From assembly GCA_031268095.1 (NCBI GenBank), contig JAIRXU010000008.1:15622-79621 (forward strand): a stretch of 64,000 bases of DNA. Direction: 5' to 3'. Source of the DNA: Oscillospiraceae bacterium (GTDB lineage Bacteria; Bacillota; Clostridia; Oscillospirales; Acutalibacteraceae). The position numbers and the translations under genes were made by a program. Below the pieces are notes generated by a model. The model ran no database searches. It saw only the letters and a list, made by a program, of their open reading frames with translations, and was not told the origin of the DNA. This document shows positions 17,495 to 37,916 of this stretch, piece by piece (the first letter of the stretch is position 1; each line of letters begins with the position of its first letter).

Positions 17495-19210
17495 CTAAAA
17501 ATCTTTGCATCCGCGCAGGAACCGGTCTACCCAATCTTCCTTGCGGAATGCGGAGCAGTTGTTGAGCACTGTCAGCAGTTCATCCATCCAGGCCGGGGCG
17601 GCGTCCTGTCCCGCAGCGGGCAGCATGCTGACAATGATGGTTTCTTCCGCGGGCGCTTTCGCCGCCTGCGCCGCGGCCGCCAGCAGGACCGACGGGACCG
17701 TGGGAACCTCGGCGGCAGCCGGGGACGCCAGTTGGGAGACCGCCAGTTTGCGTTTCAAGCCCGCCGGGTCTGTCAAGTCGGACAGGGATGCGACCCGCCG
17801 GGACGGGGCGGCAGCGGTTGCCGCGGCTGCGGTCCGCTTGGGCGCGCGGGGCGGCGGGGGCGGCACCGGAACGATGACCGGCGTACGCTCGGAAATCACA
17901 TGCGCGGCGGTCGGGATACCGCACGGCTCTTTTGCCGGTGCTTCCAGCGAGGCAGGCTTCAGTTCTTCCGGCAACGGCGCGGCCGGTTCCGCCGAAATTG
18001 GCTGCGGCACTTCCGCCGGCAGCGTCTTTTCGGCCGGCGCGGCCGGCGACGGGCTCATCAGCAATTCTTCCAGAGAACGGTTCATCCTGCGCAGCTTCTC
18101 TTCCGGGCCGCTTTCCCGGGCAGGCGGCGCGAAGTGCGGCGGCGGCAGTGCAGATTCCTCCGCGGAAGATTCTTTCACGGAAAAATCTTCTGCCGTGTCC
18201 GCAACGGACCGGGGCAGGATATCCGATGGCTGAATCGCCGGGCGCGGCGGCAGCTGGGGCTCCGGCAAAGCGGATTTTTCCGGGGACATCAACGGCGCAG
18301 GCGGCTGGACCGACGAGACATGCGGGAAGGCCGGAAACTCTGGCAGCGCCGATTCTTTTGGAAACTCCCGCGCCGGCGGGAGCTGGAACGATTCGACGCG
18401 AACCGGCTCCCCCTGCCCGAACAGGTCCAATGGATTGGGTTGATCAAATGATCCCATGGGATCCTGCGCGCTCCCCAAAGCTGCCGCTTCCGATTCCAAG
18501 GACATCCCCTGCGGTTCCCCAACCGCCAAAACTCCCTCTCTCCCGCTTGCCGGCGCTTCCTCCGGCGCCTGATGTTCTCTCCCCCGCCGCTTTTGATTTT
18601 CTCCATTTTCCCTCTGATTTTTTTTGCGCTGTTTGCCCGCACGGGCCGCATAGACTATGATACAAATGATAATGCTCAGCAGCGCCAGCCCGCCCAGCGG
18701 GGCGGCAACATACAGCAGAAACCCTTGCACGGTATTGATCTTGGTGACAAAATTTAAAATCACAATGGTTTTGTAGCGGTAATTGGATTGGCTGACCGGC
18801 GGAGAATCGGACGTTGGGTTGTGGTCGCCTTTGGTGATCTTATAGACGCCCCGGTCCTCGACGATGCGATGCGTATTCAGTGTCTTGCCGTCTTCCTTGG
18901 TGAAGGTAATCACGTTGCCTTCCTTCAGGTCGGCAAACGGCACGGCGCGGTCAATGACCAGCGCGCCGGGCAGGATGGTCGGCGACATGGACTCGGTCGT
19001 CACCCGGACAGGCCGGAAGCCATACCAAGTTCCCGCCCATCCGCTGATGACATTGGTCAGCGCCAGCGGCAGAATTGCCAGCACCAACAGCAGCGAAAGC
19101 AGAATGATCATCAGGTTGAGCAAGGTATTCTGGGATTTTTCTTTCTTTCCGGCATGCCCGGAATGTTTGCCGGACGCGCCGGCGGGGTTGGGGTTCGACG
19201 CCTGTTTCAT
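17495..19210 (-). CDS. ER/archaeal-type (SipW-like) signal peptidase I with a ~390-aa Pro/Ala/Glu-rich C-terminal extension
   Basis: TM helix, then TTESMSPTILPGALV (catalytic Ser box) and ITKGDHNPTSD (His box), then a second TM helix. ATG 19208-19210 follows AGGAGG, so it is preferred to GTG 19237. Confidence 0.8.
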   Translation of the reverse strand: MKQASNPNPAGASGKHSGHAGKKEKSQNTLLNLMIILLSLLLVLAILPLALTNVISGWAGTWYGFRPVRVTTESMSPTILPGALVIDRAVPFADLKEGNVITFTKEDGKTLNTHRIVEDRGVYKITKGDHNPTSDSPPVSQSNYRYKTIVILNFVTKINTVQGFLLYVAAPLGGLALLSIIICIIVYAARAGKQRKKNQRENGENQKRRGREHQAPEEAPASGREGVLAVGEPQGMSLESEAAALGSAQDPMGSFDQPNPLDLFGQGEPVRVESFQLPPAREFPKESALPEFPAFPHVSSVQPPAPLMSPEKSALPEPQLPPRPAIQPSDILPRSVADTAEDFSVKESSAEESALPPPHFAPPARESGPEEKLRRMNRSLEELLMSPSPAAPAEKTLPAEVPQPISAEPAAPLPEELKPASLEAPAKEPCGIPTAAHVISERTPVIVPVPPPPPRAPKRTAAAATAAAPSRRVASLSDLTDPAGLKRKLAVSQLASPAAAEVPTVPSVLLAAAAQAAKAPAEETIIVSMLPAAGQDAAPAWMDELLTVLNNCSAFRKEDWVDRFLRGCKDF

Positions 19211-19262
19211 TGCGAAGCCTCCTAGTCTCGTTTTCACGTCCTAACGGGTGAGCGGAGAGCGC

Positions 19263-20966
19263 TCAACCCGCTCTGCTTTTTTCCAGTGCCTGCTGCATGT
19301 ATTGGACCAACTTGCTCAAGCCCTTGTCGTTCATGGTCTTGACAAACGCATCCCAATCGCCGTCCAGATTCTTGGCGCCGGTAACGAACTCCCTCGAGGT
19401 TTTGTTGAGGGTATCGATCAGGTCGCTGTAGACGTTCGCATCACTGCCGTTGTTGAGTTCTTCACTCTGCTCGGCGGTAAGGATCAGTTCCGGCAATTCG
19501 TAGCGCAGGCAGGCGCGTCCGATGGGTTCGTAGTACTGACGGGTTACCTGGTTCAGGTAGCCTTGCCAATTCAGCGGGCTAAGCAGATCGGCGCTGCCGT
19601 TTTGGTCCGGGGTGGCCTGCTGCGCCAGCTTCCGGTCAGCGGACATCCAGTAGGGCAGCTCACCCCGGATGGCGCCGTAAATGGCGGTCCCGTCTACCGC
19701 TTTGTCCGCCAGCCGCCAGGTTGCCTGCGCGCCGCCCATGGCTTGAATGCGGTTATCCGCCGGGAACCAGCCAACGCTTTCCGCGCCGTAGAGCACCGTA
19801 AGCGATCCGTGCTCGGAAAGCATCGCGTCCCCGAATCGCAGCGCCAGTTTCTGCCTCTTGTCGCTCAGCCGGGAGGGCACCAGGAAACCGCCCAGCTTCA
19901 CCTGGCTGCGGCGGACCAGCGTACCCTGCTGGCTGCCGTTTTTCAGCGGGGGCAACGGAACGTAAACGGCGGCCCGGGCGGTGTCGTTGAAGAGGGCATA
20001 GAGGTCTTTGGCAAGGATCACGCCGTATTTTTCATTGGCGCGGCTGCCGCCCAGGAAAACCTCCGTCCCCTGCTGGAAAACGTTCTGGTCCAGCAGGCCT
20101 TCGCCGTAGAGGGTGCGCAGGTAAGACAGCGCCTGCCGGAATCCGGGTCCGGTGACCGCGGCGGTCACGCTGCCGTCTTCGGCCAGGCCCAGGAAATTGC
20201 TGTCGGCCAGGTCGTAGTCGGTGTTGACGAAGGCATGGATGAGGTACCCCAAGGTCGTAGCATTGCCTTGCCCGCCGTAAGCTGCGCCCAGCGGGATCTC
20301 GTCGGCCGCGGAACCGTTGCGGTTGCAGTCCTCCGTCTGGAACTTCCGCAGCACGGCCAGCAGCTCATCCGTGGTGGCGGGCATCTGCATTCCCACCCGT
20401 TGCAGCCATTCGGCGTTGATCCAAGCCTTTTGCGGGTATTCCTCGCTGAGGGATTCCTGGAAAGCGGGCAGAGAGTAAATACCGCCGTCCAGCATCAGCT
20501 CCGGCAGACGGGCCGTGTCGCTGCGGATCACTTCGGAAAAATTCGGCATCAGTTTGTCGTCTTGGGCCATGTTGGTGAGGTTGAGGAAGGCGCCCTGCTG
20601 GGTCAGCGCCGTCAGCTGGCTCAGCTCCAGCCCTGTGCCGAGGTAGCAGTCCGGCAGGTCCGCGCCTTCCTTGGGCAGGTCTTCCGCCATTTTGGCGTAG
20701 ACCTTCTCGTTCTCCGCCCCATAATCCAGCCACTTGATCCGCACATGCAACTCATCTTCGAACGCCTTGGTGATCCCGGCCTCGTCCCAGAATTTGATGA
20801 CATCACTGCGGGCGGCAACCTTGATGGTATCCTTGCGGTAGGTTACCAGAAAGAAGACGCCGGTTCCCAGAAGCAGACAGGCCACCAGAATCACCGCGAT
20901 GATCTTCCCGATCGGGCCCTTTTTCTCGTCCTTTTTTGCCTTGTTCGCTTTTTTCTCTTTTGCCAT
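19263..20966 (-). CDS. extracellular solute-binding-protein family 1 homologue (large LplA/YtcQ-like type), TM-anchored, with no cognate ABC genes nearby
   Basis: Lys-rich N-terminus plus a TM helix (IIAVILVACLLLGTGVFFLV). The overall SBP pattern includes the C-terminal ..NLDGDWDAFVKTMNDKGL... ATG 20964-20966 replaces the ORF-track start at 21194. Confidence 0.75.
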   Translation of the reverse strand: MAKEKKANKAKKDEKKGPIGKIIAVILVACLLLGTGVFFLVTYRKDTIKVAARSDVIKFWDEAGITKAFEDELHVRIKWLDYGAENEKVYAKMAEDLPKEGADLPDCYLGTGLELSQLTALTQQGAFLNLTNMAQDDKLMPNFSEVIRSDTARLPELMLDGGIYSLPAFQESLSEEYPQKAWINAEWLQRVGMQMPATTDELLAVLRKFQTEDCNRNGSAADEIPLGAAYGGQGNATTLGYLIHAFVNTDYDLADSNFLGLAEDGSVTAAVTGPGFRQALSYLRTLYGEGLLDQNVFQQGTEVFLGGSRANEKYGVILAKDLYALFNDTARAAVYVPLPPLKNGSQQGTLVRRSQVKLGGFLVPSRLSDKRQKLALRFGDAMLSEHGSLTVLYGAESVGWFPADNRIQAMGGAQATWRLADKAVDGTAIYGAIRGELPYWMSADRKLAQQATPDQNGSADLLSPLNWQGYLNQVTRQYYEPIGRACLRYELPELILTAEQSEELNNGSDANVYSDLIDTLNKTSREFVTGAKNLDGDWDAFVKTMNDKGLSKLVQYMQQALEKSRAG

Positions 20967-21265
20967 AGTTGCAGACTCCGTTTCTATCGAATGTTTGGGA
21001 TCCGTCGCGGAGGGAACGCCGCCATGAAACAGGCGCCCATGATGCCGTTCCCTCTGGGATGGATTTCCTTCATTTGCTATGTCGCGTAACGGGATGAAGC
21101 GCCGTTGTCCGAAGCTGCCCCGGGGACCTGCCCCGGGGTCTTTCCTTCGCCTCTCTCCCTGTTCTTCCCCTGCTCTCTCCCGCTCCGGTACCACACCAGA
21201 GCGGGAGAGATTTCTCCGTGCACCATGCGATGCTTTTGATCAAATGGATCGTGCCGCGGAAAAGG

Positions 21266-24200
21266 TCAGGAACGGGAATGCTTCTTGCGGTACGTCTTGC
21301 GCAAGAACACCACTAGAACAATAATCGCTGCGGAACCCAGCAGGAGGACGATCGCCCAGATGGCCGTCGGCTCATTCATTTTCGGGACGTAACTGTCGCC
21401 GCCGGAGCTGTTGGATCCATTCGAGCCGCTGGAACCATTCGAGCCGTTGGATCCATTCGAACCGCCCGAGCTGTTGGAGCCGCCGACAGTATTGGTGTTG
21501 CTGCTCGAGTTATCGCTCGAATTGTTGGCAGAATTGTCGTTGGTGTTCGTGTTGGAATTGTTGCTGCTGTTGTCAACGTTGATGACCGTATCGCCGCCGG
21601 TGCCGGTGCCGGAACCGCCGGGCAGGTTGATGTTGATATCAATGTTGATATCCCCATTGACGCCGCCAGAACCACCGGAGCCGCCGTTTCCGCCGGAGCC
21701 GCCCGAGTTGCCGCCGCAGTTGCCGCAGGCGCAGGCCCCGCCGCCGTTCCCATTTCCGCTCCCGTTTCCGCAGGTACAGGTGCTGCCGTTTGTGCCGCAG
21801 GAGCAGCCGGGATTCGTCGGGTTACCAGGATTCGTCGGCTGGCAGGTGCAACCGTCGCCCGGATTGCTGGGATCCGTCCCGCCGGGGCCCTTTGTCCCCT
21901 TGTTGAGTACGACCGGGTTCGACGCGCTGCCGCCTGCGTAAGCGACGTTGCGGATGGTGCCCGTTTCGCTGTTGGTTACCTTGGCCTGGAAGGACACTTC
22001 CGTGCTGGCGTAAGGCGCGAGGGACGCGATGATCCAGGTCACGATCCCGTCAGCGTAAGTGCCGTTGGCGGAGGCGCTGTTCGCGACATAGGAGGTCCCT
22101 TCCGGAATGGCGTCGGTCACGGCAACGTTCTTTGCCTGCAAGCCGGAATTGTTGCGGGCGCGCAGGGTGAAGGTGACGACGTCGTCTTTGGACACCACCT
22201 GGTTGACCGCCGTGTTCGTGAACTTCTCCAGGCTGATGGAAGACTTTTGGTTGCTGTGGTAGACCGGGTTGCTCGGGACGCTGCCGCTGCCGCCGGGGCC
22301 GCTCACGGTCGCCTGGTTGCGAATTGGCTGCTGCTCTTCGCCCGCGCCCAGCGCATTGACGGTCACCTTGAAGGAGAGTGTCCGGACTTGCCCGACGGAG
22401 AGCGCGCCCACCGCCCAGGTAATGGTCCGGCCGCTGATGGTGCCGCCGTTGTCGATGGAGCCTTCGACCAGCGTCGTCCCCGCCGGGATTTCATCCGTGA
22501 CGGTTGTGCCGGTCACCGTTGCGGCGCCCAGGTTGGTCACATCAATGGAATAGGTGATCACGTCGCCTTGCGTGACGGCGGTCCCCGCCGCGGGGCTCGC
22601 GTGCTTCATCGCGCCAACACCCTTGAAGCTCGGCTGATAGACGGGATTGTCCACCGCGTTGCCAGGTGTGCCGTTCACAAAGGCCTGATTGTGGATGACC
22701 GTGGTGATGTCTTCTGTCGCCGGAGCATTCACTGTCGCCTGGAAGGAGACGGTCTTGGATGCGCCCGCACCGAGGGAAGCGAGGTTCCAGACCAGGTTCT
22801 GGCTGGTCCGCACACCGCCGTCACTGGCGCTGCCTTCCACAAAGGTGGTTCCCGCGGGGATTGTATCCGTTATGGTGATATTTCTGCGCGCGGCGGAGCC
22901 GAGGTTGGTCACCGTCAGACTGTAGGTGATGGTATCGCCCACTTGCACCTGGGTGTAGTTGGCGCGGCCCGCTGATTTTTGCAGAAGGAGATCCCCTTGG
23001 GCCGGAGACGTCGTCTGGGTGTGGAACACTTGGTTGGTGTTGCGTTCCCCGTTGGGGCCGCCGACGTAAGCGATGGCATCCAGCACACGGAACGGCTGGT
23101 TCGCGCCAAGTTCCTGCACCGTGACGGTGAAGCTCACGTTCTTGGTCGTGCCCTTGAGGAGGCTCGGGATGGTCCAGCGGATTTCGCCCGCGTTGAGGAC
23201 GCCGCCGTCCGTCGCGGAATCCGCGAGGTACACTGTGCCGGACGGGACGGGAATGCGGACAGGGACGTCAGTCAAGTCCGTATTGCCGTTGTTGATGGCC
23301 ATAATGGTGTACGTGATGGTGTCGCCCACCTGGACTCTGCTCTTGGAAACCGGGGCAGTGAAGAGGTAACCGTCCGTATGCGGCTGACTGAAGCTGCCGG
23401 GGTTCACAACGATTTCCTCATTGCCTTCCTTGCCGTTCACCACCGGCGTGTTGCGGATGTACTTCACAGAATTCGCGCCCGCAGGCAACGGGAGGACCAC
23501 CGCGCGGAAACTGACGGACTTACTTTGCTTGCCGCCCAGGGTTGGGATGATCCAGGTGACCGTATTGGTCCCGGCGGCGTAGGTTCCGCCGTCGCTGGCG
23601 GAGCCGTTCACAAAGCCGAGTCCTTCCGGCAAGGTGTCGCCGACGGTGACGTTCGTCGCGGCGAGGGTGCTGTCATTGTAGACCGTCAGGGTATAGGTGA
23701 TCTCCTGGCCAGCCGTTACGGTCGTATTCGAGGGCGGGTTGGAGATCTTGCTGCCGCTGAGGAATTCATCCGCCGGCGGAACCACAATGATAATTTCGTT
23801 GGTGGCCGCTTCCGAGCTGCCGCTGGGATTCGGCGTATAGTAGGCGGTATCCCGAATGATCCCGGGGGTGGTAGAATTGTTGGCGTTGACGGTGACTTCA
23901 AACCAGACCGTCTGGCTTGCGCCGGGGGCGATGGACGCCACCGTCCAGCTGACCTCGTTGTTTGTGCTGTTATACGATCCGCCGGCTGAAATATTGTTGG
24001 CATAGGAGGCCCCGGCCGGGATGGGGTTGCGGACCGGGATGTTGTACGCCGGCGACGATCCGTTGTTGACCAGCACGACGGAATACCGTACCGTAGATCC
24101 GGGCGGGAGCAAGGACCCGTTGATCGGATTCGAGCTCAGCGTCGCGGAGACCAGCGGCATCTGGCCGTTGACGGAATGGAAGATAGGGTTCGAGTAGTAG

Positions 24201-27200
24201 AGGAAGCTTTCCGCCGTGGCCTGGGCCGTGTTCAGGATCACCGCACCCGTTGCCGCCGCGGAATCGACCTTCACCTTGAACGTCAGCGTCCGGGTTTCGT
24301 TCCCAGCCAGCTGGGCGATCTGGAAGGTGACGTTTCCGCCGGAGAGGATGCCGCCGGAACCGGATACGTAGGAGGTTCCAGCCGGAACCGGATCGCTCAC
24401 CAGGATGTTGTTGACCGGCGCGGTGCCCGGGTTGCGGACGGTCAGGGTATAGGCAATCTCACTGTTCGGCGTGACCTGGCTGCCCGCGGGTGGGCTGGCC
24501 GTCTTCGTCAGCTGGATGGGGTGCGGGGGCGGTGTGCCGACATTGATGATCACTTCGTTGCTCTCGCGGCTGATGCCGTTGACCACCGATTCGCCGACGT
24601 TGCGCAGCAGCACACCGGAGGTTCCGGCCGGCAGGACGCTGGCGACCGCTTCGAAGAAGGCGTGTACCGTGTCGCCGGGAGCGACGGAGGGGATCAGCCA
24701 GGTCAACTGCACCTGCCCGCCTTCCAGCGTCGTTACATGCGCGTAATTGCCGATGGCGCCGCCGTCGCCGCCGCCGACCGTGTACTGGCCGGAGCCCTCC
24801 TGATATTTCGTGCCGCCGGGGACAATGTCTTCCAGCAGGACGTTCGTCAGGTTCGAGGTTCCTGTGTTGGTCAGGTAGAGGTGATAGATGATCACGTCGC
24901 CGGGCTGAACCGTGGAACCGTCGATCGGCGTGGAACCCTTAGAGAAAGCGTAGTTCGCGGTTCCCGGATAGTGCTCTGTGGCGTTGGAGTTGACCGTCCG
25001 GCCGCCATAAGTCGCTTGGGCGACGTTTTGGATCGTCGATTGGGCGGAGGAGAGCACCCGCACGGAGAAGTGGAAGGTCACGCTCTGGTTGGCGTTGAGG
25101 CGATTGACGTGCCAATAAATACTGCCGCCCAGAAGGATGCCGCCATTGTCCGCGGAGTTGGGTTCATAAACAGTTCCCGCCGGAATCGGATCATAGACGT
25201 CAATGTCTTCCGCCCGTTGGCTGTTGGGGTTGCTGACGGTGATGGTGTAGGTCACCAGCTGGTTGGGCAGGACCGGCGAGCCCGAGGCAGGCAGGGCTGT
25301 CTTGCTGACGGAAATGGGGGTGACGGCTCCCTGAGCCTGCTGCTCGTGGCTGACGCGGTTGCTGACCGCGGGGCCGTCTGAGGTCAGCGCGTAGGCCTGA
25401 TTGCTCAGCCGACGGGCGCTGCTCCCCTGCGGAAGGGTGCCGACGGTCACCTGGAAACTGACGGTGACGCTCTCCCGGGCCGGGATATTGGTCAGGACCC
25501 AGTGCAGGCGGCCGCTGCTGTTTTCGAGGCTGCCGCCGTTGGTCGCCGTGCCGTTCTGGTATTCCGTCCCCGCGGGAATGTCGTCAAATACCTGGACGTT
25601 GGCAAGGGGGCTGTCGCTGTAATTGAACACGTCCACATAATAAGTGATCGTTTCGCCCTGGGAAACATTGCTGCCGCTGGGCGGAGCAGAGCGCTTGAGA
25701 ACCTGCACCGGCACTTGATTTGTGGTACCCGGATAATGATGGGTCGGGTTGGAGCGGATTGTCTGGCCGCTGTAGGTGGCCGTCGCGGTGTTCTCCAGCA
25801 GGCCCACCCAGTCGCCGCCGTTAACCGTCACCGAGAAGGTCAGCGCCTTCGACTGCCCAGGCGACAGGGACGCGATGGTCCACTGCACCTTGCCGGCGTT
25901 CAGCGTCCCGTTGTCCGAAGCGGAATCCGCAACATACGCGGTGTTCGCCGGAAGCGGATCTTCCACCAGGATGTTGGTGGCCTCCATAGAGGAGTTGTTG
26001 GTCACGGTGATGGTGTACCGAATGGTTGCGCCCTTTTGGACGGTGGATCCCGTGACCGGCGACGCCGTCTTGATCATTTGCAGGGTATTGGTGTCGCGTA
26101 TCACGTTATGCAGGACGACATTCGAGTAATGGGGGCCGTCGCTCTCGAGGATATGGCCCTGGTTGCGCAGCTGGAGGAAATTGACGCCGTCCGGCAAATC
26201 GTCCACCTTGACGCGGAACGTGACGCTGGTGGTCCGTCCCGCCGCGATGCTGGCGATGATCCACTCCATCTGAACGTCGTTCAGGACGCCGTTGGGGATG
26301 GCGGTGTTTTGTACATACGTTACGCCCTTGGGCAGGTAATCGAACACCCGGACGTTGGTCGCCGCAGAGGTTCCGTTGTTCTTGATATCAAGATAGTACG
26401 TGATTTCGTCCCCTGCATGGACGACGCTCCCCGCCGCCGGAATGGCGCGCTTGGTGACGGTCAGGTTTTCCGTTGTCGCCATGTAATGCGCTGTTTCGTT
26501 TGTTTCCACCGCGGTGGCATTGTTGACAGAAACCGTCGCGTGGTTGCGGATCACATTGTCTGTCCCGGTGACAGTTGCCTGGAACGTCAGCTGGCGGATC
26601 GTGCCGGCAGCGAGCCCGGAGATGTTCCAGACCAGCGTGCCGCCTTGCAGCGTGCCGCCGTCGGAGGCGGAACCAGGGATGTATGAGGTCCCGGCGGGAA
26701 TAATGTCGTTCACCCGGATGTTGGTGACAGGGCTGGTGCCCGGGTTCTGAATGTTAATCGCGTAGGTAATCACATCGCCCGTTTCAACCGGTGAACCGCT
26801 GGAAGGAATTGCCGACTTGGATGCGTTGACCGGCGGAGTCTCGCCCGTAACGTAATGCGTCACCTGGTCGGACAACCAAGTCCCCCCCGGAACCAGCAGC
26901 TGCGCTGTGTTGGTCACTTGGTAATTGTAGCCCAGCGCCAACGTTTTGACCTTGAAGGTCACTTCTACTGTCTTGCCGGGTTCAATCTTGGCAATGGTCC
27001 AAGTCAGCGCGTTGTCCGCGAAGGTCGCGGCGGGATTGGCGGAACCGGAGACATAGGTCGTGTTCGCCGGGATGCTGTCGCGCACGTTCATGTTCAGCAG
27101 GTCGTTTGTGCTGCCGTTGGTGACGGTGATGCTGTAGGCAATCTCCGTGCCGGCTTCCACGGTGGATCCCGTGACAGGAACGGCCTTTTTGCCGATGCGC

Positions 27201-30200
27201 GGCCCGCCGGTGTCGCCCGCGATCACATAATGAATCACTTCCGGCGCGTATTTGCGCTTGCCCGCGCTGGTGGCGTAGGCGCTGTTGTGGACGGTCCGCT
27301 GGAAAATACCGGACTGCAGCTGATCCATCTTGGCGCGGAAGGTCACCTGTGCGGTGCCGTTGGCCGCAATGGTGGGAATGGTCCAGACCACCTGTCCGCC
27401 GACCAGAACGCCGCCGTTGTCTGCCGAGTTGGCAACATAGGTGGTGTACGCCGGAATCGGGTCATAGATCGTCACATTGGTCATCGGCGCGGGAGACAGG
27501 TTGGTCACGGTAACGGTATAGGTGATCTCCGTGCCGGGCGCAACGGTGCTGTACTCCTCCGGATTGGCGGTCTTGGTGACGATGAAATCATCCGGAATCG
27601 GGTTCACCTCGTGGTTGACGGGATTGGAATCCCGCGTCACCGGCGTGGCTCCGTCGAGGTAGCTGACCGTCCCCTTGTTGACAACCTGACGGTAGGTCAG
27701 CTCGCCCAGCGAGTCCACCGTTACCTGGAAGCTCAGCACAATGGGCGTCGCGCCGCCGGCCATGCTCCCCAGGGACCAGATGACTTTTTTGTCCGCCGTG
27801 CTGTAGCTCCCGCCATGATCCGCCGAGCCAGGCACGTAAGTGGTGCCGACAGGGATCAGGTCCTCGACGACCAGGCTCTGCGCCGTGCCCAGACCGATGT
27901 TCGAAACCGTCAGACGGTACGTAATCGTGTCGCCCGGAAGGACATTGCTGCCGGTGGTGGGCGTCGCGTCCTTGGCAACCTGGACATAGGGATGATCAGG
28001 CTCCGGATCGTCGGGCATGACGTAATGGACGGTGGTGTTGGTTGGCTTGCCCTTGGCGTAGGCGATGTTATAGATGGTGCGCATCGACTCGCCGGGGGTG
28101 AGGTTGTTGGCCCGCACCCGGAATGTGACGGAAGCGGTGCCGTGCAGCGCCGGGATAGTGGGGATATTCCAGGCAATCTGCCGGGTGATGGGGTTGAACG
28201 TGCCGCCGCTGTCCGCGGAGATAAAGTCAAAATACGTGGACAGTACGTCGGTCACCGGAACGTTAAGCATAGGTTTGGGGCCGTAGTTGCGCACCGTGAT
28301 GGTGAAGTCCACCGTATCTCCCGGTTTGACGGCCTGTCCGCTCTCGGGCGAAGCGGTCTTTTCGGCGGAGAAGGCCATCGGGTAGGCGATGTGGATCACA
28401 TCGTTGGTCGGAAGATCCGGGATCCCGGGATTGATTGGTGTCCCGCCGCCCTCGTTATAATAGGCGGTGTTGATGATCTCGCGGCTCTCCATCAGCGCGG
28501 GCAGGTCATCCACCGTCACCTGGAAACTCAGCGTAATTGAAGCGCCGGACGCCAGAGATGGAATTTGCCAGGTGATGCGCCGGTTTGGCGGGTAATAGAC
28601 GCCGTTGGGCGTGGCGCTCTCCGGAACGAAGGTGGTTCCCACCGGAACGGTATCAATCACGGGAATGTTATAAATCGTGCCGGTACCGTTGTTGGTGAAG
28701 GTGATGTAGTAAGTAATGATATCTTCCGGCGCAACTTCAGACATATGCGGCGGGTCGGCGCTCTTGACGGCGCCCAGCACCGGCGGGACAACCGTATGCG
28801 TCACCTCGTTGGTGGGCTTGTCGTCTACGATGGCGACGTTGACCACTTCCAGCTCCGTCTCGCCCGCCGGGAGGGGATTGGCCCGGACCGTGAAGCCGAC
28901 AAAGGCCGTGGACCCCGCCTGGATGTTGGTCACGGACCACTCGACCCGGTTCAGCGCGGCATTATAGTAACCGTTGCCGCGGATGGATCCGGGCACAAAG
29001 GTGGTGCCTGCCGGAATCTCGTCATATACGAGGGTATTGAGGGCCATCAAGGTTCCTTCGTTGCGCAGCCCGACGGTGTATTCAATGTAACTGCCCACCC
29101 GGACGGTGCTGCCGGAGGCCGGGACCGCCGACTTGAAGGGAATCACGCGCGCCTTGTTGACGTTATGGATGACTGTGTTGGTTGGCGTCTCCGGATCCTC
29201 GCCCCCCTGGCCGTAAAGGGCGGTGTTCTCGATCTTCCGCCGGGCCAGGCCCTCGGGCAGCTGATTCGGATAGACGTCAAAGCTCAGGTGTTTCTCCGCG
29301 CCGGCCTCGAGCGTGTTGATGATCCAGGTGATCTCCTCCGCGACGGTGACGCCGCCGTTGGTGACGCTGTCCTTGATCAGAGTGGTGTACTGCGGGACCA
29401 GATCCTTGACCTTGATGTTGTAGTCCGCCACATCGCCGGTGTTCTTGACGGTGATGGTGTAGCGGATCACCTGGCCTTCCAGCACCTCGCTCAGGTGCGG
29501 CGGCTCGGCGCTCTTGGTGGCGACGATGTGCGGCGAAGCGACGTCGTGAACCGTCTGATTGGTCGGCGCGCCGTTGACCAGCGCCACATTGAGGATCTTT
29601 GCGGAGGTCCGGCCGTCGGGCAGGCGGGAAACTTTGACCTTGAAGGTCACCGTTTCCGTCGCGCCGGGGGCAACGGACGCGATGGTCCAGCGGACCAGGT
29701 TGTCGCCGGGATCATAGGCGCCGCCCGCATTGGCGGAACCGGCCACATAGGTGGTGCCCGCCGGGATGTAATCCAGGACCACGACGTTGGTTACCGCTGC
29801 CGCGCCGGGATTCTCCACGCGGATGGTGTAGAGGATTTCGGCCCCTACCAGCACCCTGGACAGGCTTGGCGGGTCGGCGGATTTGTAGGCGGAAATCGGG
29901 GCGTTCTTCTGGAAATGCATCACCTGGTTGGTGCCCCGGTTGTTGATGAACGCGCGGTTGAGGATGGTCCGCTGAATGAGGTTCTGCGGCATTGCCAGGA
30001 CCTTGACCCGGAACGTAAAGGCCATGGTCGCGCCGGGCGCCAGGGTGGCAATGGTCCAGCGCATCTCGTTGGCGGCGGCGATGTAGCCGCCGGTCGAACC
30101 GGCCGGGGCGGGAGAAGCCGCGTAGTACTGCGTTCCGGCAGGGATGGCGTCGGTTATCACCGTCCCGGTGGCGGGCAGCACGTCGTCGTTGGTCACGGTG

Positions 30201-33200
30201 ACGATATACGTAATGACGTCATTTTCCACCACTTCCGTGCCGGGAGCCGGATTGGAGGTCTTGAGGGTATTCAGTGCGTTTTTGCCCTTGACGTAATGGT
30301 AGACGGGGTTGGTCGCTAAGTTGTCCACCACCGCGCGATTGACCAGCGTCCGCTCGAGTTCCCCTGTATTGAGCGGATCCGCCGTCACTTTGAACTTCAA
30401 TACCACGCTCCCGCCGGCGGGGATGCTGTTGATGGTCCAGGTGATGACGCCCGAGCCCGCGTTGTAGCTCGCGGCGATGCCCAGCGCCGGATTTTGGGTG
30501 GCCGAGGCGGCGACATAGGCCGTATACTGGGGCACCTGATCGGTGACAATGAGGTTGCTGCGCGGCGAAGTCGCGTGATTGAAGACCTCAATGCTGTACT
30601 CGATCACATCGTCCTGCTCGACCATGGAGCCGGTGACCGGGTCGGCGCTTTTCTCGCCGTAGACGTCCGGGCGGACCACCTTGTGGATCACCTGCTGGGT
30701 GGCGGAACCGCTGACGATGGCGGTATTATAAATATAGTGTTCCGTTTCGCCGGACTTGAGCTGCCCGGCCGTGACCTCAAAGTGCAGGTCGATGCTATCC
30801 CCCGCCGCGAGCAGCGGGATCACCCACTGTACCCAGTTGTAGCTGGGATCATAGAGGCCGGCATTGTCGGCGGAGCCGGTAACATAGGACGTTTCCGCCG
30901 GAATGTAGTCATATACGGGGATATTTTCCACCGCCACAGCGGCGCGGTTGGTGACGGTGATGGTATACTGCACCGTCTTCCCTGCGTAAATGGTGGTATT
31001 GGTGGGCGGCTCAGCGGACTTGGTGCCTTCCACCGGCGGCAGAATGACGTAATGGGAAACTTCATTGGAAGGAATCGTCGGCAGGCCGGGATCGTCGGCG
31101 GTGCCGCCGCCGTTGCCGGTGTAGGCGACGTTGTCGATGCGGCCCTGGCTTTTGCCGAAGGGCAGCTCGTTCACCGTAACGGCGAAGGAGACGGTCTCCG
31201 TCGCTCCCGGGGCAATCGACGGAATGACCCAGTCAATGTTCTTCGTCGCATTGTTATAGAGTCCGCCGGCGGTGATGGATCCGGCCTTCAGCGTCGTCCC
31301 CTGGGGGATGGTATCCCGCACGGGCACGAAAGCGATGGCTTTATCTGTCACGTTCTTGAGGGCGACGGTGTACGTGACGGTCTGGCCGACATAGACTTCG
31401 CTGCCGTCTGCGGGATCGGCGGATTTGGTGGGCACGATCTTGGGCTGCGTAATTTCGTGCTCGACTTCGTTGGACGGCACGTCCGGAATGCCGGGCTTGT
31501 CTTTCGTCCCGCCTTCGCCCGCGATGGCGACGTTAATGGCCTTGCGAGCATACTCGCCTTCCGGCAGGGGATCCGCAGTAACCTTAAATGTCAGGGTATA
31601 GCTGTCTCCCGGCTCAATGAAACGGAGCACCCATTCCACCCGGTTGGTGACGTGGTTCTCTTCCCGAACCAGGCGGCCGCCGTCTGAGGCGGAGCCGGGG
31701 ACATACGTGGTCCCCAGAGGAACGGTATCCCAGACCGGGAGGTATTCCAGCAGGTCTCCGCTGTGGTTGGTGACGGTGATGGTATACTTGATTTGCTGCC
31801 CGGGCGCGACGACGCTGCCATCGGGCGGATCCGCGATCTTGTCCACATCAATGAGGTACGGCACAACGGTGTGCTCTGCTTCGTTGGTATTTTCACCGGG
31901 GGTGTCGTAGCCGTAGATCACCGCGTGGTTCTTGATGACCCTGGACAGCTGGCCGTAAGCCAGGGGATTGACCCGAACCTTGAACGTGACGTACACTTCG
32001 CCGCCGATGGGTGCCGTGGTGCCGCCCGCCGCGCCGGTGGGTTCCAGCCGCGGGATGGTCCAAATCACCCGGCCGGTGGAGGCCTCGTACTTGCCGGTGC
32101 CATCGCCGGTGCCGGTCAGGGATCCTGGCACATACGTCGTTCCGGCGGGGATCGCGTCAATGATTTGGACGTTGGTATCCGCCAGGGTACCCACATTGCG
32201 GACCGTGATGGTGTAGGTGATGATGTCGCCGGGGCGGACGCGGGTGATATTCCCGGCCGTGCTCTCTTTGGGCGCGGCGCTCTTGCTGTACTCCAGCACC
32301 GGCTTCTTGACATGGTGCCGGACGACGTTGGTCTCCGAGCCGTCCACCGTCGCGAGGTTGGTGATGGTGGCGCTGCCTGTCCCGGCGGGGAGCCGGTCAA
32401 CGATGACCTCAAACGTCAGCTCTCGGATCTCGCCGACAGACCAGGTTGCGAAATTCCAGGTGATGGTCCCGCCGCTTTCTGTGCCCCCGTGGGAGATGCT
32501 GCCGGGCACGAGGGTTGTGCCGACAGGGACCTGATCGGTGACAACCAGATTCCGGGACTTCATGTCGCCAACGTTCTGCACCTGAATTTTATAGGTGATA
32601 CGCTGGCCTTCGATGACGTCGGACTCCGTCGGCGGGACCGCCGTTTTTTCATACAGAGGCAGGTCTTTGCCGACTGTGTGGGTGACAGTGTTGGTGACGA
32701 TCTCATCAACATAGGCAAAGTTGTTGATCGTCCCGACCAAGTCGCCTTCCGGCAGCGCGTTCGTCGTCACCTGGAAGGTGATGGTCTCCGTCCCGTTGGG
32801 GGGGATGCTGGCGATGGTCCAAGTCAGCTCCCCGCCGGCGTTCAGCGTTCCGCTGCTGGCGACGTTGGCGGAAGTGGATGCGGAACCGGCGACGTACGTC
32901 GTTCCCAGCGGGATCTTGTCCCGCACAAGCACCTTTGTGGCCTCTTCGGAGCCCTTGTTCATCACCTCGATGGTGTAGGTGACGGTCTCGCCTTCGTGCA
33001 GCCGGGAACTGGTGGTTTTATCGGCGGACTTCACGCCGTAGACAAAGTAATTCGTCTGGTTATGGATGACATGGTTGGTCTCGAAGTCGGCCACTTTGGC
33101 GACGTTGTCAATGATCCGCTTGTCCAGGTTTTCGGGCATCCGCTCCACTTTGACTTGGAAGCTCAGCACAGCCTTCTTCCCCGCCGCCAGCGCTTTGATA

Positions 33201-36230: not shown

Positions 36231-37916
36231 TTACCGCATGGCCGCCGGATACAGCGGCGAAGGATTGCGGGCGGCGGTGCTGACGTCGATCTCCTCGCCT
36301 TCCCGGATCTGCCGCGCCATGACCACCAGCCGCGCTTCCCGGAAGTCGTAGGCGCAGGTGGTGAGGCTGAGCACCCGATCTCCCGGCCGGAGATCCACCG
36401 GCGTGAAGAAAAGCGAGCGCTGGCGGACTTCCGCCGCGAAACTGTCGATGTTGGCTCCCGCCGTCTGGCGTTCCAGCCGCCATTCGAAAAAGTGTCCGTT
36501 GTCCTGGGCAGGATCTGAGTTGGTGATAAATACCGCAAAAATCACCCAGTTGTGCTCTTCATAAATCGTGTCAAACGAAAACGTTGGATTCTTGAGGTAA
36601 AAGGATAGATCGCGGTACTTTGCCAGCCGGCCGAACATCGCCCCGTTGCGGCAATTATGGCCGTAAATCGCCAGATTGCTGCCTGTTTGCAGCGGCAGGA
36701 CAATGTTGCTGCTGTCCAGGAACAGGGCTCCGTACCGGCTGTATTTCTTGTCCTCGTTGTGGTCGAGGTAAAAATCGTTGTCTCCGCCCTTCATCACCGG
36801 CAAGTCCACTCCGACGGCGGGGATGGAAAGCCAGCCGGTCAAGTCGCTGTTGCGGCTATAGAGCGCGGAAAACTTCGACAGCTGTCCGCCGTTGCCGTCC
36901 GGCGTCTGCGGCGCCGCCGCGGGCTTGCTCTGCCCCTCCGCCGCGCCCGAAGGCTCGCTCTGATGATACAGTCCCGCGAGTTCCTTCGCCTTTGCCCGCT
37001 GCCGGGGCGCTTCCGTGGCGTAGTTGATCAGAAATCCCGCCGCAAAGAGAAACGCCGCGCCTGCCAGCGCCAAAACAGCCGCCGTCGCCGCCTGAAATGC
37101 TTTCCGCCGCTTCACGCGTTCCACGGGCGGCAGCGGCGCCCAGCCAGCTGCGTCCCGCTTCCGTTTTCGTTTTTTGGCGCGCGGGGGAGACGGTTCACTC
37201 GGCCGAACTACCGAAACGCCGAAAGCGAAGGGATTGACGGGCGGCGGCTTGTCCGGAACCGGCGCGGCCGACTGCTGGGCCCGGCCTTTGTCCGCTAAGC
37301 TCGCCGACGCCTCCAGACTTCCCAGGTACTCCAGCACCCGGCGCGCCCGCGCAGGCACGGCGGACACAACGTAGAGTGTCTTCGGACCGCCAGGGGTCCG
37401 GACCGTCATTTCCGCCGCCAGCGGGGTTCCCTGGTCTTCCATCCAGCGAAACGACACTGCGTTGACCGGCGTTCCCGCCGCCGCCGCCGCGGTCTTGCTC
37501 AGCGCCGCCGGCTCCGGAATATCTTCGCCCCAAAAGCCGCCCACCGTCACAACATAGGGAACCGCCGGTTCCCGCGTCAGAACCTCCCGCAGGGCGGGGA
37601 GCAATTCCTCCGGCGCGGCCAGCCGCCGCACCGCGCAGGGGCGGCACAGAAGCTCTTCGCACACTGGGGCGGCGGAGGTCCCCAAGAGGAAAACCGGTAC
37701 CGGCAGGCCCTGCCATTCCGCTTGCGCATTCCACAGATCCAACCGTTCACCCTCTTCCGTTTTCCTCGTTTTTTCCTGCTCTATTTTCTCGTTTGCGCCC
37801 GCCGCCGCCCTATGCTTCTTACCAGATGCGCTGGTCACGCCGCGCTGCCTGCGCAGTTCCTTCCGGCAGCGACCTTCCCAATTTCTCCCGCGCAGCGTGC
37901 TGGCGCGTTGCTGCAT
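36231..37916 (-). CDS. srtB: class B sortase with a ~270-aa cytoplasmic N-terminal extension
   Basis: C-terminal ~230 aa carry LTGWLSIPAVGVDLPVMKGGDNDFYLDHN, IYGHNCRNGAMFGRL (His), LSLTTCAY (Cys) and ARLVVMAR (Arg). A TM helix (AATAAVLALAGAAFLFAAGFLI) is preceded by a KKRKRKR patch and an unassigned domain. Confidence 0.8.
   Translation of the reverse strand: MQQRASTLRGRNWEGRCRKELRRQRGVTSASGKKHRAAAGANEKIEQEKTRKTEEGERLDLWNAQAEWQGLPVPVFLLGTSAAPVCEELLCRPCAVRRLAAPEELLPALREVLTREPAVPYVVTVGGFWGEDIPEPAALSKTAAAAAGTPVNAVSFRWMEDQGTPLAAEMTVRTPGGPKTLYVVSAVPARARRVLEYLGSLEASASLADKGRAQQSAAPVPDKPPPVNPFAFGVSVVRPSEPSPPRAKKRKRKRDAAGWAPLPPVERVKRRKAFQAATAAVLALAGAAFLFAAGFLINYATEAPRQRAKAKELAGLYHQSEPSGAAEGQSKPAAAPQTPDGNGGQLSKFSALYSRNSDLTGWLSIPAVGVDLPVMKGGDNDFYLDHNEDKKYSRYGALFLDSSNIVLPLQTGSNLAIYGHNCRNGAMFGRLAKYRDLSFYLKNPTFSFDTIYEEHNWVIFAVFITNSDPAQDNGHFFEWRLERQTAGANIDSFAAEVRQRSLFFTPVDLRPGDRVLSLTTCAYDFREARLVVMARQIREGEEIDVSTAARNPSPLYPAAMR

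Follow-up and report, generated by a model that had tools for sequence, protein, structure and literature searches.

Sortase substrates carry a tripartite signal composed of a pentapeptide, a hydrophobic helix and a positively charged tail. Here, we analyse a candidate signal of this kind at the C-terminal tail of a predicted giant adhesin of an uncultured Oscillospiraceae bacterium, together with the Cys cluster that precedes it and the sortase encoded upstream; the gene lies in a stretch of 64,000 nucleotides (contig JAIRXU010000008.1, positions 15,622 to 79,621, forward strand), termed the window throughout. Among the described systems, the closest mechanistic match is the SrtB system of C. 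difficile, and the closest gene-cluster match is the FCT pilus of S. pyogenes. C. difficile SrtB cleaves its xPxTG[D/E]-type class B motif between T and G (PMC4155245), and residues located downstream of the pentapeptide enhance cleavage (PMC4155245, PMC5118464). In a model of this enzyme with PPKTG, the active-site Arg hydrogen-bonds the hydroxyl of the Thr at P1, that is, at position 4 of the pentapeptide, just before the cut (PMC5118464). The Isd-type SrtB signals are NPQTN in S. aureus, NPKTG in B. anthracis and NAKTN or NPKSS in Listeria (PMC8225981, PMC11987632), the last of them being a precedent for Ser at P1 (PMC8225981), and B. anthracis SrtB requires an acidic residue at P2', the residue that follows the pentapeptide (PMC11987632). 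The FCT pilus system of S. pyogenes comprises a class B SrtC, the signal-peptidase-like SipA/LepA and the thioester tip adhesin Cpa, with the motifs VPPTG, QVPTG or EVPTG (PMC7900414), while the sorting motif of L. plantarum reads LPQTxE (PMC3619620). The DUF11 repeat has lately been renamed CLIPPER and was shown to contain an intramolecular isopeptide bond (bioRxiv 10.1101/2025.04.25.650565).

The giant protein has 4930 residues, encoded by an uninterrupted open reading frame (ORF) of 14.8 kb, and is built in the order signal peptide, thioester domain (TED), about 34-40 DUF11/CLIPPER repeats of isopeptide type and tail. The TED is matched by Pfam PF08341 with 31.1 bits (cut-off 22), PF01345 (DUF11) scores on 34 stretches, and TIGR01451 and the isopeptide model TIGR04226 match as well; a thioester domain with tandem DUF11/CLIPPER repeats is what defines a TED-CLIPPER fibrillar adhesin. 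The last 209 residues are the exact translation of window positions 21269-21895 (minus strand). They agree residue for residue with the first-pass annotation of this DNA, which had described a CxC cluster, an Asn/Ser/Gly stalk with the segment INIDININ, VPKMN-EPT, a 21-residue helix and RKTYRKKHSRS, and all of these details were confirmed. Judged by its make-up, the tail is the predicted envelope-proximal end of the adhesin, by which the fibre would be anchored to the cell envelope. The gene and the elements of its tail are the following:

21266..36058, minus strand: giant adhesin gene, 4930 amino acids (ORF list and translation)
21860..21895, minus strand: linker TKGPGGTDPSNP, from the last CLIPPER repeat to the Cys cluster (translation)
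21710..21859, minus strand: CxC cluster GDGCTCQPTNPGNPTNPGCSCGTNGSTCTCGNGSGNGNGGGACACGNCGG, nine Cys in four CxC pairs and one further Cys, spanning nucleotides 21716-21850 (translation)
21389..21709, minus strand: Gly/Ser/Asn stalk, 107 amino acids, residues 4784-4890, presumed to span the wall (composition)
21356..21388, minus strand: putative sorting motif V-P-K-M-N-E-P-T-A-I-W, P4 to P7' (tail alignment)
21302..21364, minus strand: hydrophobic helix AIWAIVLLLGSAAIIVLVVFL, 21 amino acids (translation and AlphaFold2)
21269..21301, minus strand: basic cytoplasmic tail RKTYRKKHSRS (translation), with the stop codon at 21266-21268

The pentapeptide VPKMN occupies residues 4891-4895 (nucleotides 21374-21388). 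Gly, Ser and Asn account for 75% of the 107 residues of the stalk, within which INIDININ forms an alternating, strand-like segment (residues 4804-4811, nucleotides 21626-21649). In an AlphaFold2 prediction from the single sequence, the helix alone is confident (tail residues 177-205), and everything else has a predicted local distance difference test score (pLDDT) <50.

A homologue search with the tail alone gave no match at E<=0.001, owing to its low complexity. A profile of three tails led to orthologues of the tail in eight more species of this genus, seven of which (designated by genome) have these motif regions:

G066: YVPKTSEASALW
G159: AVPKTNEASALW
G154, G153 and G156: NIPKTNEASALW
G160: KVPNTNEASAMW
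G155: DIPKTSEASALW

In all seven, a helix and a basic tail come after the motif, and five of the tails lie directly 5' of two genes that encode a solute-binding-protein-like (SBP-like) protein and a SipW-like peptidase. The eighth, weaker match (G157, E 4.5e-5) reads PPKTGG and stands outside the alignment described below. More distant orthologues, found on metagenome contigs through homologues of the SBP-like protein, read APKTGE, VPQTGE, VPRTGE, VPNSGE and VPKTGE. A profile of 15 tails, compared with 1.84 billion (1.84e9) representative proteins, returned nine proteins at E<=0.001 and contributed the motif regions VPKTNEASAMW, IPKTSEASALW and VPKTGESSVNW. In an alignment of 15 tails (A2), the Pro at P3 and the Glu at P2' never vary, and 14 of the 15 have a Trp further on. 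Some 20 tails of relatives carry [V/I/A]-P-[K/Q/R/N]-T-[G/N/S]-E where the window has VPKMNE, and the pentapeptides found at this position are VPKTS, VPKTN, IPKTN, VPNTN, IPKTS, VPQTS, VPKTG, VPQTG, VPRTG, APKTG and VPNSG. The place assigned to VPKMN in the first-pass annotation is thus borne out, as it is homologous to the pentapeptide in every relative found.

As read from the aligned tails, the motif of the lineage is [V/I/A]-P-x-T-[G/N/S]-E-x4-W followed by a transmembrane (TM) helix and a basic tail, a putative variant of the clostridial class B signal xPxTG[D/E], with which other sorted proteins end elsewhere in the family. With its invariant acidic Glu at P2' and the Trp that comes after it, the motif derives from xPxTG[DE] and not from NPQTN, and this Glu fits the acidic P2' requirement of B. 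anthracis SrtB. The earlier reading as x-P-K-x-N is fair in view of the Asn that tails of the genus commonly have at position 5, but the family motif is [VIA]PxT[GNS]E. A frame shifted to NEPTA or EPT, where Pro and Thr are adjacent, was rejected as the actual motif, since relatives carry EAS at that position. On the profile evidence, this is a rare, lineage-specific signal of what appears to be the class B sortase type.

Besides the 21-residue helix and RKTYRKKHSRS, the protein has a linked, presumably cognate sortase gene and, by reading of its sequence, a signal peptide. In a sortase substrate, the pentapeptide lies 17-45 residues from the C-terminus and also has Pro as its second and Thr as its fourth residue; VPKMN, which begins 40 residues before the end, has the Pro but carries Met in the fourth place. 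The tail would accordingly have every structural feature of a sortase substrate except the Thr. When the NCBIfam sorting-domain models (LPXTG and other -CTERM models) were compared with the last 59 residues and the signal peptide at E<=10, none scored above its cut-off; Loki-CTERM (9 bits; cut-off 19.9) and three others matched below theirs.

At P1, Thr is found in 18 relatives and Ser in one (VPNSG), and Met in the window only. Its codon, ATG at nucleotides 21377-21379, is one C-to-T transition away from the Thr codon ACG. The Met had been presented as a new variant of the motif; it is novel in sequence terms, but it is a one-off of a single genome and not a conserved variant motif. We know of no precedent for Met at P1 of a sortase signal. 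That VPKMN is functionally recognised, as had been proposed, is doubtful, since Met removes the hydroxyl that the active-site Arg hydrogen-bonds in class B sortase models (PMC5118464). The reading adopted here, with a confidence somewhat short of even, is that Met impairs the signal and that the adhesin is largely held in the membrane by its TM helix. This has to be set against the state of the locus: the catalytic domain of the sortase is intact and as conserved as in its orthologues, which argues for a retained substrate, possibly the giant adhesin; the 14.8-kb ORF is undamaged; and the residues downstream of the pentapeptide, EPTAIW in the window versus EASALW in relatives, differ within the variation of the wider clade, which gives no sign of long-term signal decay. 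On this last ground, accelerated decay of the sorting signal was discarded as an explanation of its own. The sorting-motif peptide forms for a Thr/Met comparison are DSYVPKMNEPTA, DSYVPKTNEPTA and GYVPKTSEASAL.

The presumed cognate enzyme belongs to a cassette whose order on the minus strand is sortase, giant gene, SBP-like gene and SipW-like peptidase gene, so that three further genes have to be considered:

36231..37916, minus strand: class B-type sortase, 561 amino acids, presumed cognate enzyme (PF04203, 48 bits; TIGR03064, 127.6 bits)
19263..20966, minus strand: TM-anchored SBP-like gene, directly downstream of the tail
17495..19237, minus strand: signal peptidase I of SipW/archaeal type, bearing a long Pro/Ala-rich extension (TIGR02228, 67.9 bits; cut-off 51.85)

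In the sortase, an N-terminal cytoplasmic region of ~270 residues is followed by a TM segment and then by the catalytic domain, which contains the motifs YGHN, LTTC and ARLVV(M)AR. Its best NCBIfam match is TIGR03064 (sortase_srtB, residues 334-532), at a score under the cut-off of 153.75 bits. Each of its 15 PDB matches at E<=0.001 (best 5b23, 8.5e-30) is either deposited as sortase B or, in the case of the chains 1rz2, 5jcv and 3psq, taken by us to be a class B sortase. Its catalytic His, Cys and Arg motifs (YGHN, LTTC, ARLVVMAR) align with those of the orthologues. The catalytic domain is 61% identical to that of G066 and to that of G159, and these two are also 61% identical to each other. 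As the SBP-like protein suggests that the window's species is more distant from both than they are from each other, an identity equal to that between the orthologues speaks against decay of the sortase. The residue after the catalytic His-Asn (YGHNC) is Cys in the window sortase, Thr in four orthologous sortases and Leu in a paralogue. The ~270-residue N-terminal region is weakly conserved in orthologues (32-33% identity over 126-236 residues), and the closest homologues in other genera of the family sit in open frames of at least 900 amino acids, so that a long N-terminal extension seems typical of this sortase clade.

An intact enzyme could also mean that the signal is fully functional, the sortase of this species accepting Met at P1 and cleaving between VPKM and N of a substrate without a hydroxyl residue at the scissile position. 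The sortase keeps its His, Cys and Arg motifs and has diverged no more than its orthologues, no part of the signal other than P1 has been lost (P3 Pro, P2' Glu, Trp, helix and basic tail), the giant gene has an unbroken ORF, and the Cys in place of Thr after the catalytic His-Asn is a lineage-specific change beside the active site. This change is the only lineage-specific one that a co-evolution reading of the sortase revealed, and it has no known link to specificity. None of the other ~20 tails carries Met, class B motifs as a rule have Thr and in rare cases Ser (PMC8225981, PMC4155245), and the contact between Arg and the Thr hydroxyl would be lost (PMC5118464). Taken together, acceptance of Met is a possibility that we regard as doubtful.

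A less likely explanation, to which only a small share of belief can be given, is that Met represents a consensus error or a minor allele of the metagenome-assembled genome, the true signal being VPKTNE. The host genome (G000) has 2.56 Mb, 59.7% GC and four sortase genes and is 94% complete in 78 contigs, ATG and ACG differ by one transition, and the collections hold no identical or near-identical sequence for a cross-check. Yet short-read assemblies rarely hold single-base consensus errors, and the rest of the 14.8-kb ORF looks undamaged.

The first-pass annotation had spoken of an adjacent class B sortase. The gene does lie directly upstream of the giant gene, in the window at 172 nucleotides from its 5' end, and the same order holds in four further species (G066, G159, G160 and G154), in which the gene next to the sortase encodes the conserved signal peptide; but it is the 5' end that the window sortase adjoins, 14.8 kb away from the tail. 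The order giant gene, SBP-like gene and SipW-like gene is kept in G066, G159, G160, G154 and G155; the SBP-like gene directly follows the tail at every orthologous locus, and the SipW-like gene is the last of the conserved cassette. A paralogous sortase (52% identity) is located on contig C63 of the same genome, directly 5' of a 571-residue TED protein that shares the thioester domain of the giant protein (37% identity over 337 residues) and ends with KVT-VPQTS-EASASG, a helix and RIRRRDWE. The sortase and substrate of this pair (L004, L093) are encoded at 19691-20776 (+) and 20815-22530 (+); the former, at 361 residues, is without the greater part of the long N-terminal region, and the stalk of the latter consists of Pro/Thr/Ser (TSSTVPG) repeats. 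Two other candidate substrates of the genome have no adjoining sortase gene: a 646-residue protein on contig C46 (ORF ending 27925, -), which ends with AFPPTGDA, a helix and RRRRT, and a 166-residue protein on contig C6 (ORF ending 6918, +), which ends with LPPTGSS, a helix and KKKEA. A contig search with the sortase catalytic domain yielded no confirmed related locus, and the 20 regions around its best homologues in other genera hold almost no C-terminally sorted protein within 10-15 kb, so that the approach through neighbouring genes works only within the genus.

These neighbourhoods also bear on the view that the tails of this family are not processed by a sortase at all, the helix and basic tail being a type I membrane anchor and PxT.E..W a juxtamembrane motif with some other role. 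The lineage motif is known from sequence alone, the sortase scores under the TIGR03064 cut-off, and its closest homologues in other genera adjoin no sorted protein. This view is very improbable all the same, since the motif has the position, spacing and composition expected of a tripartite sorting signal and shades into canonical xPxTG[DE] across the wider clade. In addition, synteny of the sortase extends over five species, and the same genome holds another sortase/substrate pair. Hardly credible, finally, is a pilus-like activity, in which the sortase would polymerise or join proteins after the model of S. pyogenes class B SrtC, SipA and Cpa instead of anchoring them to peptidoglycan: the trio of class B-type sortase, signal-peptidase-family gene and TED adhesin with a VPxTx motif is the same (PMC7900414), but neither the cassette nor the window holds a pilin-sized substrate gene, the peptidase scores as a genuine SipW/archaeal-type enzyme, and the adhesin has its own stalk of about 40 domains.

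The two remaining parts of the cassette's setting are the signal peptide and the SBP-like protein. The signal peptide (MKPKIKAKSAAVAALLVLIMILGQFSMLVTQSLA/EP) was read by eye from the giant protein and is conserved in the orthologues (L035, L110, L111 and L094), following the pattern ..K.KSA.V..LLV.A.ILGQ.S....T.S.A (window 35950-36058, minus strand). The N-terminal adhesive domain after it is swapped among orthologues, so that the alignment covers residues 4-36 only. A conserved signal peptide ahead of a swapped domain suggests that it is dedicated to the SipW-type peptidase of the cassette. The SBP-like protein is extremely rare: a search of 5.8 billion proteins gave 14 at E<=1e-30, the closest homologue is 54% identical, and an exact look-up of its sequence found no record. 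JGI labels its relatives 'putative aldouronate transport system substrate-binding protein', and the SBP-like gene has no transporter genes alongside it.

The Cys cluster lies between the last CLIPPER repeat and the stalk, with Cys at residues 4737/4739, 4752/4754, 4761/4763, 4776/4778 and 4781. Nine of the 13 Cys of the whole protein thus fall within 45 residues (Bonferroni-corrected binomial probability for one stretch of this length ~1.5e-12), and the 4270-residue repeat region contains none. Units of the form (G)-C-x-C-(G/Q/P) stand directly after the last CLIPPER repeat in ten relatives (G066, G159, G160, G153, G156, G154, L102, L105, L107 and P0025) and are absent from seven (G155, L101, L106, P0022, P0024, P0026 and P0027), and the number of CxC pairs ranges from 0 to 32. 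Because of this presence and absence and this range, the cluster is, on comparison of the tails, an optional and rapidly evolving module of the stalk, separate from the sorting signal. The stalks themselves also differ in type among the relatives: besides Gly/Asn/Ser, they are made of repeats of Pro-Asp-Thr or PGTPG, of NWNWNW runs or of short, strand-like segments in which (I/V) and (N/D) alternate. The orthologous tail of G154 (L145, G154:C1:198500-204400) has 68 Cys and 32 CxC pairs, and it also holds ~13 tandem N6-C-N-C-G units, poly-Thr spacers, a run of NWNWNWNWNW and the His/Cys segment DCYHNCVHECIHNCVHEC.

Copper metallothioneins of fungi and plants, such as that of Neurospora crassa (CuMT), are made of G-C-x-C-G/S runs between small residues, and the same dense CxC spacing with small residues is present in the cluster. 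In a single pairwise BLASTP comparison, which serves as a lead only, the G159 cluster and the N. crassa Cu-metallothionein shared 14 of 27 residues (E 1e-4). Some relatives' clusters contain His, Asp or Glu, which fits metal ligation. The cluster had been said to have no obvious precedent; this is true of database families, since Pfam searches with six clusters and PDB phmmer searches with two gave no match at E<=10 and NCBIfam does not match the cluster, but it recurs in most orthologues and resembles Cu-metallothioneins. We regard it as an apparently metallothionein-like stalk module, previously undescribed. Of the functions that had been put forward, metal binding is favoured by the recurrence and the Cu-metallothionein look, and the cluster may bind metal, although we lean slightly to the other side; the likeness stays at the level of the pattern, with profile and structure searches empty, and several relatives have no cluster, all of which counts against this assignment. 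Disulfide cross-linking or rigidification is conceivable and rather unlikely. Thioether links were left without any support: no gene for thioether or radical-SAM cross-links supports them, and some relatives do without the cluster. Also discarded was an N-x-C glycosylation sequon, as it is not conserved across the clusters.

Further Cys-rich sequences occur elsewhere in the family. Tiny predicted membrane peptides of 45-60 residues from other genera, namely L127 (G032:C5), L138 (G105:C35), L139 (G031:C1), L143 (G099:C80) and L144 (G041:C4), have the layout M-C-N-(G)-L-F-G-N-S-C-x-W, hydrophobic helix, CC-G-N-N and (G-C-G-C-G-N-N)n; they share the CxCG/Asn idiom with the adhesin cluster and have no Pfam or NCBIfam match at E<=10. 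L126 (G070:C33) is a CxC-rich, collagen-like protein of GxT repeats with the N-terminal segment CGCGNPCDCGSPCGDFGPCDCGCC, and L132 (G138:C123) is an acidic, CxC-rich protein of 212 residues with CDCGPDCDCGCNEGEPCTCGPVCDCGC and a zinc-ribbon-like end. A bolder reading would join both parts of the tail: the sortase would have shifted to accept Met at P1, making this the first natural signal without Thr, Ser or Ala-like chemistry at that position, and the CxC repeats would be a new, expandable Cu-/Zn-thiolate or redox cross-linking module, wall-proximal on giant adhesins of Gram-positive gut bacteria and related to the CGCGNN membrane peptides of sister genera. We consider this combination unlikely.

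From sequence, homology, synteny and rarity, we infer a scheme in which the cleavage site, the wall linkage, the effect of Met and the binding of metal are the predicted elements. In the relatives, the adhesin would be exported by Sec, its conserved signal peptide being probably removed by the SipW-type peptidase of the cassette, and the helix and basic tail would hold it in the membrane until the sortase encoded upstream cuts after Thr and the protein is joined to peptidoglycan, with the Gly/Ser/Asn tract serving as a disordered, wall-spanning spacer. In the window genome, a single C-to-T transition would have changed the Thr codon ACG into the Met codon ATG and left the remaining signal intact. 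Met would most likely make a poor sortase substrate, so that much of the adhesin would stay tethered by the TM helix; the length of the stalk would plausibly suffice for an adhesin held in this way to cross the wall. The CxC module, at the outer face of the wall, would either bind a soft metal (Cu/Zn) at a metallothionein-like thiolate site or form a cross-link that responds to redox state, and would not be needed for anchoring.

Sortase signals are used in the prediction of surface proteomes, and sortases are used as tools for protein ligation. A defined, rare class B signal, [V/I]PKT[N/S]EASALW, with nine cluster representatives among 1.84 billion proteins, forms with its presumed enzyme a new pair open to testing, and nature has in effect set up a trial of how strict P1 is, by replacing the scissile Thr with Met while the sortase next to it is intact. 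If all that Met does is disable sorting, the change would be no more than a lineage-specific lesion of a common kind, in an anchor that is typical in other respects. The CxC module indicates that the 'spacer' of Gram-positive adhesins can hold fast-evolving cysteine arrays; if these bind metal, adhesion structures would be linked to metal handling in anaerobic gut bacteria.

When compared with known systems, the giant protein resembles the CLIPPER (DUF11) adhesins in its stalk of tandem CLIPPER and CLIPPER_2 repeats and its N-terminal adhesive domain, whereas the anchor tail, the CxC module and the cassette of sortase, SBP-like and SipW-like genes do not appear in the CLIPPER survey (bioRxiv 10.1101/2025.04.25.650565). 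The CxC cluster shares with Cu-metallothioneins its spacing and its context of small residues, to which relatives add His, Asp or Glu as ligand-type residues; unlike them, it lies inside a giant extracellular protein beside the wall, is rich in Asn, varies from 0 to 32 pairs and has no profile or structure match. The L. plantarum motif LPQTxE likewise has various residues in place of the P1' Gly and a fixed P2' Glu (compare VPQTSE and VPKTNE), but it belongs to a housekeeping class A sortase of an unrelated lineage and has Leu at P4. Isd-type SrtB systems likewise pair the sortase gene with that of its substrate and allow Asn at P1' and Ser at P1 (here in the VPNSG relative), and the P2' residue of the lineage is acidic, as in B. 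anthracis; in contrast, the substrate here is a TED/CLIPPER adhesin and not a NEAT haem protein, and P4 is hydrophobic instead of Asn. To our knowledge, no Isd-type SrtB signal has Met at P1. The locus shares with the FCT region of S. pyogenes a gene cluster that unites a thioester adhesin with a class B sortase and with a protein of the signal-peptidase family, as well as a motif that starts with V-P or x-V-P and closes with T. It differs in that there are no separate genes for shaft or basal pilins, the stalk being part of one chain of 4930 residues, in that the peptidase is of SipW/archaeal type and probably active, and in that the cassette includes an SBP-like membrane protein. The likeness to C. 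difficile SrtB and its (S/P)PxTG signals lies in a class B sortase of Clostridia and in xP[K/Q]TG, after which come an acidic residue, the helix and the basic tail, and distant orthologues of the window tail read VPKTGE, VPQTGE and APKTGE. Unlike the C. difficile signals, those of the lineage have Val or Ile at P4, Asn or Ser at P1' within the genus, always Glu at P2' and a conserved Trp, and the window has Met at P1; moreover, the sortase of the window lineage is a dedicated enzyme, encoded beside its giant substrate and extended by an N-terminal cytoplasmic region of ~270 residues.

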